From a virus (taxonomy: Duplodnaviria; Caudoviricetes), in IMG/VR virus record IMGVR_UViG_3300010885_031309: 64,000 nt of DNA, one strand, 5' to 3'. The translations under genes and the position numbers were made by a program. Positions 18,029-47,033 of the stretch are shown here, piece by piece. Under the pieces are notes generated by a model. That model had not been told where the DNA came from and did no database searches. It saw nothing but the letters and a program-made list of their open reading frames with translations. The stretch's first letter is position 1, and each line of letters opens with the position of its first letter.

Positions 18029-19414
18029 TTAGACAACAGCATATCGTGGCTGATTGATTGTGTCAAGCATGATACTTTGTGGTGTAAACTCGCCTGCTGC
18101 AAGTATGCTTTTCATAATAGCAGGACTAAATCCACTGACTAGCGCAACGCCACTCTTGTTAAATTCAACCGGAACATTACTGTGACTACTGAGATTCCAG
18201 AATACAATTCGTGGCACGCTGTATCCAGCGGCCTCATACTTGCGTTCAATCATCCGAATTGCGCTATCATTATGTGATGTACACTCGTCAAATTGCATGT
18301 CACTTAAAATCAAAATATACTTTGGCATATCCGATGCTGACACCCGCTGATTGACGGCAACGTTCAACACCGCTTCAAAAGCACCATGCAAATTAGTGCT
18401 CATGCCCCAATCAGCCGACTGTAGTTGGCTGCATTTGCTTAGGATATCTCCTCGCAGGACTTCCAATCGTGTATTCTCACTGAAGGTCAAGAACATATCC
18501 TTGAATGGTCCACGATTCTTGTCTGCACAATATAAACCAAGTGCCACACTGATGTCAATGCACTGTAGATTACGATTTCCACCAACAGGACAACACATGC
18601 TGCCACTAACATCTACCATAGGCAGCACATTAGCATCAGACATATAGTTAGGCAATGCCTCCCATTGTGCTGCGGCAACCTCCGCATCTCCTGCACCAAT
18701 GCTGCGCACAACATCATGTGGGTATACGGCAGCAGCATTTACCTTGGCTTGTCCAGTCTTTAGTGCCGTCTTGTATGCAGTATACGCAACTGAAGCATTG
18801 CGACTAAAAGCCTTTTGATAACGTGCAGCCGCCACGCTTGGCACATGACTAAAGTTGATATTATCCCAATCCTTGGCACACATTTGTGTTTCTACAACCT
18901 TAGTCAAATTGACCAGTGTCTTACGATATTGCTTTGGAGACATACCAAGATGATCGCGCAATTCAATTGCGATATCACCCTTTCTCGGTAGCCACTTAGC
19001 ACACAGAGCTTGATTATCTGCTAGTGCTGCGTCAATCATGTCGTATGCCTTGGTCTTGAATTCCTTAGTTTGGAACACAAGTAGATCATCCCAACGTCCC
19101 CATTCTGGAACATGCGGTAGTACCCGATCCAATGCTTCTGGATGTAGATTTTCCAAATGCAACAGAATGTCACGGAAAATCTGCCGTTCTCCAGCACCAC
19201 CACGAACATCCCGCGCCCATGCAGCAACACGAAGTGCTAGTGTGCGATCAAACTGAAATGCTCGTTCAAACTCTGGGACAATTTGCTTTCCACGACTTGC
19301 GCCGATCTTGTAAAAAAGATCCACCACTGGGTTTGTGGTTGACTCTAGTGCCGCCATACCGTTAGTGGTACGTGCTTCTACTACTGTGCTTTGTACTGCT
19401 TGTGCGAATGTCAT
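18029..19414 (-). CDS. DUF2828 TROVE-like + vWA protein (Ro60-related)
   Basis: RDVRGGAGER, GRWDDL, AKWLPR and MIDAS DVSGSM ... SDMQFD motifs. Confidence 0.85.
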   Translation of the reverse strand: MTFAQAVQSTVVEARTTNGMAALESTTNPVVDLFYKIGASRGKQIVPEFERAFQFDRTLALRVAAWARDVRGGAGERQIFRDILLHLENLHPEALDRVLPHVPEWGRWDDLLVFQTKEFKTKAYDMIDAALADNQALCAKWLPRKGDIAIELRDHLGMSPKQYRKTLVNLTKVVETQMCAKDWDNINFSHVPSVAAARYQKAFSRNASVAYTAYKTALKTGQAKVNAAAVYPHDVVRSIGAGDAEVAAAQWEALPNYMSDANVLPMVDVSGSMCCPVGGNRNLQCIDISVALGLYCADKNRGPFKDMFLTFSENTRLEVLRGDILSKCSQLQSADWGMSTNLHGAFEAVLNVAVNQRVSASDMPKYILILSDMQFDECTSHNDSAIRMIERKYEAAGYSVPRIVFWNLSSHSNVPVEFNKSGVALVSGFSPAIMKSILAAGEFTPQSIMLDTINQPRYAVV

Positions 19415-24310: not shown

Positions 24311-24366
24311 AATTGTAATAATAAAGTTATAACTTTATTTATCACATTTATGAGTTTTTAAATTTT

Positions 24367-24654
24367 TGGTAGGCCCCCTGGGGATCGAACCCAGACTCTA
24401 TCGATTATGCTTACCACTATAGTTTTCACTACCAGATTACCCTGTTTGTGGTCTGGACTATGCCTTCACCATCGCTTTCGCATTAGGTGGGTGATTATAG
24501 TCTCTACACGTTCCCTTGCGGGCTTCGCTCGGCGTTGGCATCAGCATTACCTGTTAAGCGTTCACCGAATTTACACCTTACTACTATACCGTTTCCAGTA
24601 TAGCGACCCATTATTACTTAAGTCGATTGCATTTACCAATTATGCTAGAGGCCC
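24367..24654 (-). tRNA. tRNA(CAT), likely Ile2 (or Met), with group I intron (24410-24620) at position 33/34
   Basis: ATCGA-CT|CAT-AA-TCGAT; P1 GACU/GGUC with U-G pair; R and S elements; terminal G. Confidence 0.9.
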
Positions 24655-35616: not shown

Positions 35617-36528
35617 GTGATGGCTGTCTGGTTCGCAAGTATTTATAACGAGGAGATTCACATGAATTATAAATCACCACTGTGCTCATGTATAGCATGT
35701 CACGAAATAAAGTCCGCTAAAGGAATAAATTGTCATTTTTTGACTATGCACACTGATGCAGAAACTAAAAAACGTCTGGTAGGACGAGAGAATAAAAAAT
35801 CTCCAAACATGTCCAAACAGAAAGAAAAATGTGAACAAGACAGATTAGTATCATTTGAGAGATATCTGATATCTCCTAATCAATGTAAGTGTTGTAATGC
35901 GATATTATCGTATGATAAAAGAAAACAGAAATTTTGTGGACGTTCTTGTTCCGCATCTTATAACAATTCTAATCGTGATGAAACGATTAAAAATAAAACG
36001 ATAGCGACTTTGAAAAATACTATCGCCACAAAATCTCAAATTAAAAATCAATTTGGAGTTTTTAATAGACGCACATCGTTTACTCCAGATGGTCCATACA
36101 CTAAAATTTACTTATGTATATGTAAATATTCTGGGCAGAAATTTTATTCTGCAACTGTAAAAACCGTTCATCCAAATTTGACTATCTCTAAAGAAAGATA
36201 CAATTATGCCTGCAAATTTACATTTGGAATATCAAATTACACAGAATGGTTCTCTACTGCAAGCGAACTGATAAGAAAACACGGATGGTATTCCACTCCT
36301 GGTTCACGCAAAGGAACAACAAATTTAAATGGAATCAGCAGAGATCATCTTTATTCGGTGCATGATGGCTGGATAAATTCTGTTCCACCGCACATATTAC
36401 GTCATCCTGCAAATTGCAATTTAGTCACTCATAAAGAGAATCAATCAAAGAACAGAAAATCTAAAATAACTCTATATGAACTTTATGAGCGTATAGAAAG
36501 ATTTAACAGAATTTATGGCGAGAGGTGA
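35617..36528 (+). mobile_element. HNH-type endonuclease with zinc-finger repeats, antisense to tRNA operon (start probably MNYKS)
   Basis: RDHLYS...HPANC.LV.H.EN.SK; GATAAATA upstream. Confidence 0.75.
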
Positions 36529-36600
36529 GGGACTCGAACCCCCGTGGGTATTAACCGATGGTTTTGGAAACCATTGCAATCGCCGCTATGCGAACCTCTC
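36516..36600 (-). tRNA. tRNA with CCA (Trp) anticodon on a class II, long-variable-arm body
   Basis: ATGGT-TTCCAAA-ACCAT; variable GGT-TAAT-ACC hairpin; G73. Confidence 0.8.
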
Positions 36601-37980: not shown

Positions 37981-38076
37981 TGGACCGTCGAACAGGATTC
38001 GAACCTGCATCAGTATACAGTGATACCACTCCAAATTACCTTTGTTCTCGTTCGTAGCGAGAGAGGATACCGACGG
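37981..38076 (-). ncRNA. D-armless tRNA-like RNA with ACG anticodon-like loop
   Basis: 7-bp acceptor, canonical T arm, T73-CCA, TCTCG-CTACGAA-CGAGA, ~37 nt variable region. Confidence 0.7.
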
Positions 38077-38250: not shown

Positions 38251-38256
38251 TAAATT

Positions 38257-38535
38257 TGGTAGGACCAGCGAGGTTCGAACTCGCGACCAACGGATTAACT
38301 TACCACTATAGTTTTCACCACCAGATCGCTCTGTTTGTGGTCTGGACTATACCTTCATCATAGCATTTCTGCCTTAGATGCCCGCCGTCTAGTCTCTACA
38401 CGTTCCCATTACTGGGCTTCGCTCGGTATCGCCATTTTACAGGGTTCACCGAATTTGACGGGTTCTACTTACAAAATTTCTTTTGTAGCACTCCTATTTT
38501 AAAGTCCGCTGCTCTACCGGCTGAGCTATAGTCCC
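38257..38535 (-). tRNA. tRNA-Lys(TTT) with group I intron (38299-38501) at position 34/35
   Basis: GCGGA-CTT|TT-AA-TCCGT; P1 ACUU/GAGU; AAATTCGGTGAA, GTAGAGACTA, TAGTCC; terminal G. Confidence 0.9.
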
Positions 38536-38592
38536 TCTATCAAACAACAGAACACAGTGTAGCACTGTGTGTATTATTTGTCAAATATTTTG

Positions 38593-38677
38593 TGGTCGGA
38601 GTGGCAGGATTCGAACCTGCGATGCTTTCGCGCTAGCTCCCAAAGCTAGTGACTTGACCAGGCTAGCCTACACTCCG
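38593..38677 (-). tRNA. tRNA-Pro(TGG) with extra variable hairpin
   Basis: CTAGC-TTTGGGA-GCTAG; variable CGCGAAAGCATC. Confidence 0.88.
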
Positions 38678-38684
38678 AGTTGTT

Positions 38685-38760
38685 TGGTAGGAGATGACGA
38701 GTTCGAACCAACATCGTCCTCCTTGTAAGGGAGGTGCATAACCTCTCTGCTCAACTACCC
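38685..38760 (-). tRNA. tRNA-Val(TAC), degenerate or chimeric
   Basis: CCTCC-CTTACAA-GGAGG; mismatches in acceptor and T stems. Confidence 0.65.
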
Positions 38761-39278
38761 TTATATTCTCTTAAATAAGAATTTCTCTTAGTTACTTTTT
38801 TGTATCTACTACCTTTTCCCTTACTGCCAAAGTTTTCTGTTTGACTGTGACAGTTAGGACATAACAGTCTTAAATTATTGATATTGTTGTTATCACTATC
38901 TCCGTCAATATGATCTAATTGTAGCACAAGAGATTTATTATTCCAAGTATCTCCTTGCTCGCATTCAAAACATTTCTTATCAAATTTTTCAATAAGATAT
39001 TTCTTTAATGTATAAGAGGAATTACTCGTGCATTTATTAGATTCAATTCGTGGAATAGTTTCATTAATCCATTTGTACTTACCTTGACAAACGTTGTCAC
39101 AAAATTTGTTAATTTTGCTACGACCACTTAAATTCTCTTTACCGCAATGTAAACACGAATAGAATTTTGAATCTTTTTTTCTATCTATAAAAAAGCCTGT
39201 TTTGCGACTATGTGATCCAACATGACCACCATATTTTTGTCCAGAATCAAATGTTGCTCCGCAATGACAAATATACAT
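38751..39278 (-). mobile_element. HNH endonuclease
   Basis: LQLDHIDGDSDNN..NLRLLCPNCHSQT; stop inside tRNA-Val 5' end. Confidence 0.9.
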
Positions 39279-39388: not shown

Positions 39389-39477
39389 TGGTTGCGGAAC
39401 CTGGATTCGAACCAGGACAATGCATTAGATGTCTCAGGGTTATGAGCCCTGCGCTTTACCAATTAAACTATTCCGCT
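39389..39477 (-). tRNA. Initiator-type tRNA-fMet(CAT) with 18-nt variable region
   Basis: 1:72 mismatch, GGG/CCC anticodon stem, CTCATAA loop. Confidence 0.85.
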
Positions 39478-39620: not shown

Positions 39621-39980
39621 CTAGAGTAGCAGACTCTTTCGTCCACTCTCTAGAGCACACTTCATTGCAATTCCCAGCGCTGCGGCACATGGAAACCTAT
39701 TGCCACGTTTGAACTTGAAGCCATTTAGCGTAAACGGCTTAAGAACCTCATCGCCATTCCACCATCCACGTTGGACATAAATATACCCGTCACGTTCAAG
39801 AGACTCACGTAACTTGGTGAATTCTGGATGATCTATAGTACTGATCGCATAACTAGTATTTTCGTAGACTAGCGCATCTACTAATTCATCTGGCGTTAGT
39901 GTTTCTTTATTAGCAAAACGACTAAGACTAGTCTTTTGTGTAACACTAGTTAAATATTCTGATTCAATTGTAAAATTCAT
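39621..39980 (-). CDS. Hypothetical protein
   Basis: 119 aa with RBS. Confidence 0.6.
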   Translation of the reverse strand: MNFTIESEYLTSVTQKTSLSRFANKETLTPDELVDALVYENTSYAISTIDHPEFTKLRESLERDGYIYVQRGWWNGDEVLKPFTLNGFKFKRGNRFPCAAALGIAMKCALESGRKSLLL

Positions 39981-40222
39981 TACGATCTCCTAACATTTCT
40001 ATATACACCTGCTGACATACGATCTCCTTAATAAGAGGAGATTAGATTTTTTACAGCCGACGATTACCCTACACGGCATCATGAATAGTGTAGGCTTTAC
40101 CTGGCATATTTATAAGATAATTGCCAGCATCTAACGAAGGGTGTCTTACCACCCCAAACTAATATATAGTATAAGTATATTATTAATAAGACATATATCA
40201 GCATGTGTATATAGAAAACGAC

Positions 40223-40300
40223 TGGAGCACAGGGCCGGATTCGAACCGGCGGTTTTACGGTTTTGCAAACCGTTGCATTGGGCCTCTCTGCCACCTGTGC
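40223..40300 (-). tRNA. tRNA-Cys(GCA)
   Basis: ACGGT-TTGCAAA-ACCGT; T73. Confidence 0.92.
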
Positions 40301-40303
40301 GTT

Positions 40304-40380
40304 TGGTGGTGACGGGCAGGTTCGAACTGCCTTCATTCAGCCTTATGAGGGCTGCGTATTTCCACTAATACTACATCACC
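40304..40380 (-). tRNA. tRNA-Met(CAT), elongator-type (or Ile2)
   Basis: CAGCC-CTCATAA-GGCTG. Confidence 0.85.
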
Positions 40381-40396
40381 AAATATAAATAACAAC

Positions 40397-40675: not shown

Positions 40676-41018
40676 CAGACAAGCGACCACTTCATACAGT
40701 CCAGTCGGACATTTTCTAATTTTGATGGAGGCACTGAGTTACGAGTCAGACTATGCCCCTAGTTATCGTAATCGCTAGGTAATTTCAAGTCAGACAGAAG
40801 TGTGTTCTTTATAGACGCACAACATTTCCTTTTGCATATGGCGCTGTATTTTCTCCAAGAAGATTGACCTATCGTTCTTCTCTTTACACTGCGACAGCTT
40901 TGAACTGAGAGATCGCAGTAACTTGGAATACAGCATAACTTGGCGTACATGGAGATCATTTCAATCGTCTTTCGCTCTCGCAAGAGTACCCTCAATCTTC
41001 GGGCTCATGTACATATCT

Positions 41019-41106
41019 TGGTGGGGACTGAAGGAATCGAACCTAATTGCCGCCACTCTGCATATTATGGCAAGTGATTTACAGTCACCCGCAGAGAACA
41101 GCCCCC
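41019..41106 (-). ncRNA. D-armless tRNA-Tyr(GTA)-like RNA
   Basis: 8-bp acceptor, GGTGA-CTGTAAA-TCACT, TTCGATT loop, A73-CCA; CTCTGC complementary to GCAGAG in variable region. Confidence 0.7.
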
Positions 41107-41114
41107 AAAATTCT

Positions 41115-42220
41115 TTACCATATTTCAACACACTGATGGGCTTCTTTTAAGTCGAACTAACCCCGCACCCTAGTGATTTATTCCTCCCTGGTCAGAGGTT
41201 GTTTTCAATGTGTTGAAATATGGTTTCCTACTTTGCGCGACCGTTCGGAACAATTCAAGACGCACCCACTAAGCACAGTGTCCTTGATTCTCAGACCTGG
41301 GACTCGAACCCAGCACACTATCTTAGTTAGTAAGAGTGCAATCTTATTAACTTACGGTGTGAACCTATCTCTGATATTGCTTTTACCATATTTCAACACA
41401 CTCGTTGCATCAGTCGATAAGAGCAGTCGATACAAAAAATGTGTTGAAAAAAAACTCTATGCTAATTGTATAAAGAACTGTGTTGATTTCTCAACATTGA
41501 TGACAGTATATCAGTGTCCTGATTTATTGTCAAGAAACTGTCGGGTAGCTTAATGTGTGATTTCCACTACCCTGTTACTCTGTATCAGTCTAGGCTAATC
41601 ATTGCTGAAAATTCCTAGCATCAACCTGCGTCACACTGTGTTCAGACAGTTATAACTATAACAGGACCGTGATTTATTGTCAACAACTTTCAGTGATTAG
41701 ATCGAAATGCACTCGCATCTGCTTTTTGAGCCGCGTGTTCTCCGCCCTTGATTCCTAGACTAGTACTAGGGGCGTGTGCCCATTTACACTAGCACTTCGA
41801 TCTAATCACTGAATTTTAAAGAACTACGCTGATTTCTCAACGTTAGAGACAGTATATCAAACTTCTGATTTACTGTCAAGTTTCTGTAGTGATCTTGATT
41901 CAACACATGATACTATCTAGATGATTCAGTAGCTGTATCGGCCGATTATCTACTATCTGTCACCCTACGCTCCCTTGGTCCTTTGGGAATGGCTTACCCT
42001 GTGCTGAATCAAGATCACTACAGATTGTTAAAGAACAGCAGTTTACGCTACTGCCAAACGAAGACCTGTGGGTTCTCAGGCTACCCCACACTAGACGTTA
42101 TACTGACAACTGGGATTGTGCTTCCCGAAACATTCTGTAGCGGCGGTGGGAGTTTGTTGTCCCTCGTTTATGCCGACTACACTCAGACCCTGTTTGTTGT
42201 CAGTTCTCTAGCGTATGAAT
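41115..42220 (-). ncRNA. Cluster of long-stem-closed structured RNAs (about 41116-41224, 41221-41380, 41385-41449, 41545-41650, 41689-41813, 41890-42019, 42090-42211)
   Basis: Perfect 8-18 bp closing stems, no credible ORFs, four dedicated promoters. Confidence 0.65.
41590..41618 (-). ncRNA. Minimal CAGC-bulge element E6
   Basis: CTAGG-AATTTTCAGCAATGATTAG-CCTAG. Confidence 0.45.
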
Positions 42221-46105: not shown

Positions 46106-46154
46106 AATATTGTTAGTATAAGTTAAGCTGAATTATTTGTCAAGAGAAATTTTT

Positions 46155-46424
46155 TGGCTCCCTGTCGTGGGGTCGAACCACGGACCAACAGATTCCGGTT
46201 TGTGTGACTTTCGCCACTCCCTGGACTTTATCTTGACCATAGCATTTCTGCCTTAGGTCCCTGCCGTCAAGTCTCTACACGTTCCCGTTTCTGGGCTTCG
46301 CTCGGTATTGCCATATGCTTTCGCACTTAGGTTTCACCGAATTTGACAGGATTTTCAACTACTGTTTCCAATAGAAGTGTCCATTTCTAAACAGTCTGCT
46401 GCTCTACCTCTGAGCTAACAGGGA
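46155..46424 (-). tRNA. tRNA-Asn(GTT) with Azoarcus-type group IC3 intron (46195-46389) at position 36/37
   Basis: GCAGA-CTGTT|AA-TCTGT; intron ends GTCCAGGGAGTGGCGAAAGTCACACAAACCGG, matching the Azoarcus tRNA-Ile intron 3' end as I recall it. Confidence 0.92.
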
Positions 46425-46433
46425 ATTGATTTT

Positions 46434-47033
46434 TTAATAACTTTTTCCTTCAAGATATCGTTTCATTCTTAAATGTCTACCGTTTCCTTTGTTTTTTCCT
46501 TTATAAGTCGGCGTTTGACTATGACAATTAGGACAAAGCAAAGACAAATTACTAATTTCGTTGTTCGTGCTGTTTCCGTCTATATGCTCTAGTTCCATAA
46601 CTAGTTCTTTGCCGTTCCACTCCGTTATACCACAATTCCAGCATTTATTTCCGTATTTGTCTAAAAGAAATTTCTTCATCGTCTTTGAAGACGCAATCTT
46701 TTCTTCTATTTTTTGAAGAGACTGATAATCTTGCTGACACTTGATACTACAATATTTGTTCTTGTTTGCTCTATAATACAGAGTCGTCGTATTACAGAAT
46801 ATACAGTTAAAGAAACTTTTCTTTTTATCCTTGGCTAAATTATTAAATGTAGCAGAGCAGGAACTATTACAAAACGCTTTCTTTCTTTTGAAGTCATCAT
46901 AAGACAGTGAAGTATTACAATGTTTACACAATTTTGGAGATTTGTTATATGCTATCTCATTGGCTTCTTTTATTTTAGCCCATGTTTTAGCAGACTCAAC
47001 CGCTCCTAATTTTCCTGCTTCCGATCTATTCAT
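46434..47033 (-). mobile_element. HNH endonuclease
   Basis: MELEHIDGNSTNN..NLSLLCPNCHSQT; paralogous to 38751-39278. Confidence 0.9.

Follow-up and report, generated by a model that had tools for sequence, protein, structure and literature searches.

A probable tyrosine tRNA of phages and bacteria with a covariation-supported pseudoknot in place of the D arm

To our knowledge, the cloverleaf is treated as universal outside organelles. Among the tRNAs described to date, those nearest in function to the gene reported here are the class II tRNA-Tyr genes, and those nearest in architecture are the (8/4) tRNAs, including the allo-tRNAs. The (8/4) tRNAs and allo-tRNAs, together with tRNA-Sec, serve serine, histidine, cysteine or selenocysteine, or act in suppression, and PMC5389517 contains neither a Tyr member nor a pseudoknot. 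A 2020 review of non-canonical tRNAs makes no mention of phages or pseudoknots, and our targeted full-text search of the literature returned no published description of the fold presented below. One published element might belong to the same family: DNAVirus_1423, a candidate RNA that at times overlaps ARAGORN calls of tRNA-Tyr (PMC10690425).

Two further bodies of work bear on the gene. The PtuAB nuclease of Septu and retron-Eco7 depletes tRNA-Tyr by cutting its variable loop at U47/C48 (PMC12673091, PMC13096335, PMC11555353), and the variable loop of a phage tRNA-Tyr determines its ability to neutralize that defense (PMC12673091). Accessory tRNA arrays have been proposed to serve as stress or anti-defense reserves (PMC8421152, PMC12803027).

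The window, that is, the whole 64 kb stretch of DNA that we analyzed, belongs to a giant freshwater phage related to T4, with PHROG matches that include ribonucleotide reductase and baseplate proteins; the DNA runs containing the stretch were freshwater metagenomes. The gene of interest lies in a minus-strand tRNA region that also contains 20 or more further tRNA genes, several of them split by group I introns. ARAGORN called 17 tRNAs in the window, and the gene at 41019–41106 (−) was not among them. It scored below the gathering score of the Rfam tRNA model (RF00005), and its sole Rfam match was to tRNA-Sec at 24.5 bits (cutoff 47). A blastn search of positions 40700–41400 against GenBank phage records gave no match. 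An earlier note on this DNA had described an 8-bp acceptor, a tyrosine anticodon arm and an A73-CCA end, and all of these were present when the minus strand was read from 41106 to 41019. The parts of the putative RNA, and a candidate promoter upstream of it, are as follows (helix X denotes the helix found in place of the D stem, R1 the covariance model described below, and cells the individual pairs in the family alignment).

41019–41106 (−): whole gene, a putative 88-nt rewired tRNA-Tyr(GUA); G1 at 41106, encoded CCA at 41021–41019; 98.3 bits against R1.
41099–41106 (−): 5′ strand of the acceptor stem, GGGGGCUG, 8 nt; covariation of all 8 pairs, 98.7% of cells paired.
41097–41098 (−): UU connector from the acceptor stem to helix X; UU in 84/89 Tyr and 10/10 Arg members.
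41091–41096 (−): 5′ strand of helix X, CUCUGC, in place of the D-stem strand that leads into the anticodon stem; pairs with 41061–41056.
41090 (−): G17, equivalent of position 26; may pair with U35 at 41072 in a 26-44-like pair.
41073–41089 (−): anticodon arm with GGUGA/UCACU stem and CUGUAAA loop, GUA at 41082–41080; 5/5 pairs covary, 99.8% paired.
41069–41072 (−): 5′ strand of the variable stem, UGCC; partner at 41051–41048.
41062–41068 (−): A/U-rich linker AUAAUAU within the variable-arm loop; 3–13 nt long in the family, where it remains A-rich.
41056–41061 (−): 3′ strand of helix X, GCAGAG, the relocated D-stem half; supported by covariation, mutual information and RNAalifold.
41053–41055 (−): UGG, proposed equivalent of U17-G18-G19 that would dock on the T loop; found in 85/89 Tyr and 10/10 Arg members.
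41048–41051 (−): 3′ strand of the variable stem, GGCA; supported by covariation and an alignment-free test.
41031–41045 (−): T arm with UAGG/CCUU four-layer stem and UUCGAUU loop; the outer layer is U-U here.
41023–41030 (−): 3′ strand of the acceptor stem, CAGUCCCC; pairs with GGGGGCUG, with one G-U pair.
41019–41022 (−): discriminator A73 and encoded CCA; A73 in 89/89 Tyr members.
41505–41533 (−): candidate promoter, TTGACA, 17 nt, TATACT, with an upstream TG; 11/12 consensus positions, a sigma-70-like consensus match only.

The nine nucleotides UU, CUCUGC and G make up the entire interval between the acceptor and anticodon stems, and there is no local D stem-loop. The variable region is 27 nt long and contains GCAGAG, in the order UGCC, AUAAUAU, GCAGAG, UGG, C, GGCA, AU. 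In the family the linker from UGG to the variable stem measures only 0–3 nt, which constrains the geometry.

We assembled relatives of the gene from IMG/VR. An exact 23-mer taken from the element retrieved six contigs, in which the sequence from G1 to CCA was kept while both flanks were unrelated. A looser pattern, consisting of the anticodon loop, the T loop and the 3′ end, matched at least 80 loci. In about 58 of the matches listed, 21–22 nt separated the 5′ end from the anticodon loop, as against 30–36 nt in matches to cloverleaf tRNA-Tyr. From 40 loci we built the covariance model R1, which models four stems (acceptor, anticodon, variable and T) and from which helix X was deliberately omitted. 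Run over 165 sources, R1 scored the family at 50–106 bits and canonical tRNAs at 43 bits or less. Applied to the window, it detected no second copy of the gene; the other matches scored 29 bits or less and were ordinary tRNAs. ARAGORN made no call for the window gene, nor for the family genes in 99 related loci. Our test alignment, A2, comprised 100 distinct members from IMG/VR phage contigs, and members of the family are 86–94 nt long. Because the search patterns preset both the T loop and the loop of the anticodon arm, plus the 3′ end in one of the scans, divergent members will have been missed and part of the apparent invariance is built in.

Two scans together yielded more than 100 distinct Tyr versions in IMG/VR. 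The same architecture was found with Arg(UCU) and Arg(CCU) anticodons and once with an Ile(UAU) anticodon, in keeping with the earlier suggestion that these phages hold a family of alternative tRNA folds. The size of the family also bears on a simpler account, in which the gene is a decayed tRNA-Tyr pseudogene that has lost its D arm by deletion. Rejection by tRNA finders is what one would expect of such a remnant. Against it stand more than 100 distinct, full-length versions that preserve the structure in unrelated contigs and bacterial genomes, and a gene that stays intact amid unrelated flanks. These observations already contradict decay, to which we assign a negligible probability.

The strongest evidence for the architecture comes from helix X. 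The earlier note had proposed that a pseudoknot replaces the D arm, with CTCTGC paired to GCAGAG in the loop of a variable hairpin, and had named compensatory changes among homologues as the way to check it. Such changes were abundant. Across the 100 distinct sequences, helix X (CUCUGC/GCAGAG in the window) showed a standard pair in 98.7% of cells; double changes occurred at all six of its pairs (6/6), and the middle pairs were represented by five or six pair types. None of the shuffled controls (0/500) matched the observed values, and shifting the partner strand by 1–3 columns lowered the pairing of the whole structure to 38–54%. Since R1 was built without helix X, the count of X pairs was not fitted to the alignment model. 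RNAalifold found the helix on its own, stacked on the anticodon stem via a 26/44-equivalent pair, and it paired columns 17 and 37, which were GU in 74 sequences and AU in 18. An all-against-all scan of mutual information placed four X pairs in its top twelve, beside acceptor and anticodon pairs. The centroid fold of a single sequence likewise included helix X.

The stem that closes the loop around GCAGAG proved to be a different one from that first drawn. GCAGAG does lie in the loop of a variable hairpin, as claimed, but the stem named for that hairpin, GCCA/TGGC, did not covary: 77.1% of its cells were paired as compared with 77.5% in shuffles, and 380 of 500 shuffles reached a value as high. 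The sequence does contain GCCA and UGGC, and the two are complementary, which is the attraction of the fold as originally proposed (helix X plus a GCCA/UGGC hairpin). The GG of UGGC, however, is constant even where its proposed GCCA partners vary, and that fold, contradicted by the family alignment, is in our judgment very improbable. The supported stem is UGCC/GGCA (nt 35–38 with nt 56–59), which was paired in 87.4% of cells and showed double changes at 4/4 pairs. When the two segments were compared without an alignment, 83 of 100 sequences formed a perfect 4-bp helix with their own partner strand, as against 22% with the partner of another sequence. Mutual information independently flagged the variable-stem pairs 39-68, 40-67 and 38-69.

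Because the 3′ strand of helix X lies in the loop of the variable stem, the two helices together make a pseudoknot. A nested alternative would have helix X lengthen the anticodon arm, in the manner of the D-armless tRNAs of mitochondria, with the variable stem not formed at the same time. The nested consensus of RNAalifold contains X and leaves the variable stem out, and that stem is short (3–4 bp) and less well kept than X, its outer pair being broken in 24 of the 100 sequences. Predictors restricted to nested folds are, by construction, unable to return both helices, however, and the changes at all four variable-stem pairs, the difference between self and cross pairing (83% versus 22%) and the recovery of the same pairs by mutual information all speak against the nested form, which we consider improbable. 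We concluded that the 6-bp helix X (nt 11–16 with nt 46–51) and the 3–4-bp variable stem form a pseudoknot, as shown by covariation in the family.

Covariation likewise defined the acceptor branch. The eighth acceptor pair was GC in 81, UG in 8, AU in 6 and UA in 3 of the 100 sequences. In the T stem, two G-C pairs were invariant and the third covaried; the outer pair was unpaired in 50 of 100 sequences and is a U-U in the window's clade. The covarying eighth acceptor pair and the four-layer T stem therefore indicate an 8/4 layout in which the 12-layer branch is kept. That is, an 8-bp acceptor on a four-layer T stem gives, on this comparative evidence, the same 12 layers as the 7+5 of a normal tRNA.

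Outside the core, the RNA has the features of a canonical tRNA: the anticodon stem is 5 bp long and carries a 7-nt loop with U33 and a purine at position 37, the T loop fits UUCRAnn, and the 3′ end reads NCCA. Among Tyr members collected with patterns that preset the anticodon, and in half of the set also A73, we counted A73 in 89/89, G1-C72 in 88/88, the anticodon GUA in 89/89 and the CUGUAAA loop in 89/89. The T loop in the family reads UUCGAUU or UUCAAUU. CCA is encoded in 75/89 phage members and is absent in 36/47 bacterial copies. Within the window, the CUGUAAA loop occurs in a tRNA context once in 64 kb, in the gene at 41019–41106, which is therefore the sole Tyr-anticodon tRNA of those 64 kb, as the earlier note had stated.

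The Arg members provided a separate line of evidence on the core. The almost invariant UGG that follows the relocated strand probably stands in for G18-G19, judging from topology and conservation. The base following its GG is A in 15 of 18 Arg members of the same fold (8 of 10 in A2) versus 5 of 89 Tyr members. A20, the base after G19, is an established, classical identity element for ArgRS (reviewed in PMC9976931). The Arg-specific A after GG thus supports both the equivalence of GG with G18-G19 and charging by the cognate synthetases.

From this evidence, all of it drawn from sequence, we concluded that the gene most likely specifies a functional elongator tRNA for tyrosine, with a core wired unlike the cloverleaf, and we put the probability of this reading at roughly 80%. 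The topology and conservation suggest how such a core might be built. Helix X would stack on the anticodon stem via G17, the equivalent of position 26, and so take the place of the D stem. Its 5′ strand, leading through G17 into the anticodon stem, would parallel the path of the 3′ strand of a D stem to position 26, and its 3′ strand, leading into UGG, would parallel the path of the 5′ strand of a D stem into a D loop containing G18-G19. This would amount to an opened D loop: the chain would reach helix X from the elbow side via U9-U10, and the second X strand, coming from the variable region, would continue to U52-G53-G54, which would lock onto the T loop to make the elbow of the L. Trimming of the transcript to G1…CCA would fall to RNase P and a 3′ nuclease, the TyrRS of the host would charge it via G1-C72, A73 and G34-U35-A36, and EF-Tu would take up the 12-bp branch, after which the tRNA would decode UAY codons for the phage. 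Relatives of the element occur in RNA-library contigs from two studies (X19 and X20), where the flanks are unlike those of the window and the libraries may contain DNA. A lake metatranscriptome contig (X4) covers the 3′ 29 nt of the element and downstream sequence only; these contigs do not show transcription.

In IMG/VR the family is common and sits in tRNA clusters; ARAGORN counted a median of 11 tRNAs for each locus fetched, and a canonical tRNA-Tyr was present in the fetched flanks of only 4 of about 88 rewired-Tyr loci. The family extends to bacteria. A single scan across species-representative genomes of bacteria found 47 loci (L165–L211), about 36 of them in Planctomycetota; the chromosomes of Schlesneria sp. 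T3-172 and Lacipirellula limnantheis I41, both complete, are among the holders. At 29 of the 47 loci the gene lies within a dense tRNA array, with up to 39 genes on one strand; in such arrays it stands amid 20–39 ordinary tRNA genes on the same strand. The flanks of the gene are conserved among Planctomycetaceae, and several Phycisphaerae and Pirellulales carry stand-alone copies outside arrays (L167, L168, L179, L186, L189). When R1 was run on sampled Planctomycetota with 29 candidates per genome scored, so that some copies may have been missed, at least 6 of 151 genomes held the gene; two of these were the known holders G001 and G010, so at least 4 of 149 were new. A second CUGUAAA-type loop, together with a GTTCGATTC T loop, was observed in two Lacipirellula genomes (G002:C1:5956609-5956658 and G004:C2:2069014-2069063). 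In these two Planctomycetota arrays the sequence stands about 500 nt away from the rewired tRNA-Tyr; it drew no ARAGORN call and may represent a further unusual RNA with a Tyr anticodon.

In each of the ten bacterial genomes that we checked (10/10) a canonical class II tRNA-Tyr is present as well, which excludes the rewired gene as the sole tRNA-Tyr of Planctomycetota, and in both genomes examined for position (2/2) the canonical copy belongs to the usual Thr-Tyr-Gly-Thr cluster. Ordinary decoding in those ten genomes can therefore do without the rewired copy, which could have another role there. We regard the gene as accessory and probably mobile, and not as the housekeeping tRNA-Tyr.

A canonical copy alongside the rewired one is also what one might expect if the RNA were a tRNA mimic with no part in translation, serving as a decoy or sponge for a defense nuclease directed at tRNA-Tyr or for another tRNA-binding factor. 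Over-expression of tRNA-Tyr alone neutralizes PtuAB toxicity (PMC12673091; PMC13096335), and the ribosome might accept so unusual a core poorly. Yet everything that charging and decoding need is conserved, namely A73, G1-C72, CCA, the 12-layer branch for EF-Tu and the 7-nt anticodon loop. A decoy of tRNA-Tyr would leave unexplained why Arg members carry the ArgRS-specific A at the equivalent of position 20, and at most phage loci the gene is the sole Tyr tRNA in an otherwise broad set. We therefore consider a mimic unlikely and continue to favor a tRNA that works in translation.

The surroundings of the gene in the window yielded several further observations. The candidate promoter lies about 400 nt upstream of the gene, and the same cassette is repeated in related contigs. 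Between the promoter match and the tRNA, the 15-mer GTGTTGAAATATGGT occurs in three exact copies, one of them inverted, at 41117–41131 (−), 41210–41224 (+) and 41385–41399 (−), the last of which along the transcript stops 10 nt before G1. These copies could form alternative 15-bp leader hairpins, and a motif related to GTGTTGAAATATGGT is found upstream of the gene in loci L003 and L252. A further hidden tRNA in 41107–41505, which the T-arm-like CTGGGTTCGAGTCCCAG had brought to mind, was rejected when no acceptor pairing fitted; Rfam gave no match in that interval at E values up to 10. Three tRNA genes of the window have group I introns in or beside the anticodon, at 38255–38592 (−), 46110–46470 (−) and 24330–24620 (−), and Rfam detects two of the three introns. 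To judge from their exons, these split genes would encode a Lys(UUU), an Asn(GUU) and a CAU tRNA. HNH endonuclease genes are found near split tRNAs, at 38751–39278 and 46434–47033.

Other tRNA-related features of the window are also unusual. Short variable loops are normal for Trp, Pro and Met tRNAs. Here, tRNA-Trp(CCA) at 36516–36600, tRNA-Pro(UGG) at 38593–38677 and tRNA-Met(CAU) at 39389–39477, all on the minus strand and 85–89 nt long, each have an extra arm of 13–19 nt. ARAGORN called a permuted tmRNA at 39978–40396 (−) that overlaps Cys and Met tRNA genes; with no Rfam tmRNA match there, the call is probably false. At 18029–19414 (−) a 461-aa protein is encoded that matches DUF2828, DUF7788 and PHROG 850 (‘RNA-binding protein’, E 3e-150).

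The earlier note had likened the Tyr gene to another element of the window, at 37981. The likeness holds in that the element, at 37982–38076 (−), is a conserved tRNA-like gene outside the cloverleaf pattern; it does not extend to a second copy of the Tyr design. The element resembles a tRNA-Arg(ACG) gene with a 7/5 acceptor/T layout, and it has only 7 nt (UAUCCUC) where a D arm would be and a 37-nt variable region that includes GGAGUGGUA, a sequence resembling a D loop. It is kept in three IMG/VR contigs (L250–L252), where changes on the two sides of the acceptor, anticodon and T stems compensate each other. R1 gave no match to it, and its best Rfam match was tRNA-Sec at 18.7 bits. We concluded that it is a different non-cloverleaf variant.

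Why such a design should exist is a separate question from whether the RNA works in translation. A tentative answer, which we hold to be possible though somewhat doubtful, is that the rewired fold is an adaptation against defense. With a D-stem strand moved into the variable arm and locked there as a pseudoknot, the RNA would present no free variable hairpin to nucleases, and it would retain compatibility with TyrRS, EF-Tu and the ribosome despite the locked arm. This hypothesis would explain why rewiring, in phage clusters and in accessory bacterial arrays, usually affects Tyr, the sole isotype for which attack on the variable loop is known, and why bacteria hold a rewired copy alongside the normal one. 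The Arg and Ile members are left unexplained by it. If it were true, the family would be a class of nuclease-proof spare tRNAs beyond the cloverleaf rule.

Whatever its purpose, the family points to a widespread and strongly conserved tRNA design of phages and bacteria, in which a core helix made from non-adjacent strands breaks the cloverleaf rule. Because standard finders miss the rewired genes, the annotations of phages and arrays systematically lack Tyr tRNAs and some of those for Arg and Ile. A survey of tRNA arrays reported tRNA-Tyr among the rarest array isotypes (PMC4758250), and undetected rewired copies might contribute to that rarity. The fold also indicates the degree of topological change that may be acceptable to TyrRS, RNase P, EF-Tu and the ribosome, and it may offer a natural scaffold for orthogonal tRNAs.

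A comparison with known systems places the design more exactly. With class II tRNA-Tyr(GUA), as in E. coli tyrT/tyrU, phages T5 and T6 and the copies at loci L018–L080, the rewired gene shares the anticodon arm, G1-C72, A73 and CCA, as well as a T loop of the same consensus, an extra arm that follows the anticodon arm and precedes the T arm, and a position in phage tRNA clusters. It differs in having no D hairpin, with 9 nt between the acceptor and anticodon stems instead of about 19, in its 8/4 rather than 7/5 split, and in scoring below the Rfam tRNA threshold. In the rewired RNA, moreover, the D-stem strand and the GG are predicted to sit inside the variable-arm loop, which makes the fold a pseudoknot; its variable arm is thus not a free hairpin, the loop being engaged in helix X.

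With the (8/4) tRNAs and allo-tRNAs (PMC5389517) and with tRNA-Sec, the shared features are the 8+4, 12-bp branch, a 6-bp helix of the D type and an extra arm. The (8/4) tRNAs of bacteria and of alpha-proteobacterial phages (PMC5389517) also resemble the rewired Tyr genes in occurring in phage tRNA clusters. Those molecules are cloverleaves with a local D hairpin, which has a long stem and a tetraloop (PMC5389517), whereas the 6-bp helix of the rewired RNA would be formed with a strand 30 nt downstream.

The D-armless mitochondrial tRNAs, such as metazoan mt-tRNA-Ser(AGY) and those of nematodes (PMC7609411), likewise have no D hairpin. In them a short unpaired connector is found within a shrunken, flexible molecule confined to organelles (PMC7609411); in contrast, the rewired Tyr RNA has a covarying 6-bp helix, keeps the GG, measures 86–94 nt and belongs to bacteria and phages. 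Finally, the TYMV-type tRNA-like structures of plant RNA viruses are, like the RNA described here, tRNA-shaped and pseudoknotted products of viruses. In the plant viruses the pseudoknot makes up the acceptor stem of a structure at the 3′ terminus of the RNA genome, which is not a decoding adaptor, whereas the rewired Tyr gene has an ordinary 8-bp acceptor helix, places its pseudoknot in the D-stem region and lies in the tRNA cluster of a DNA phage.
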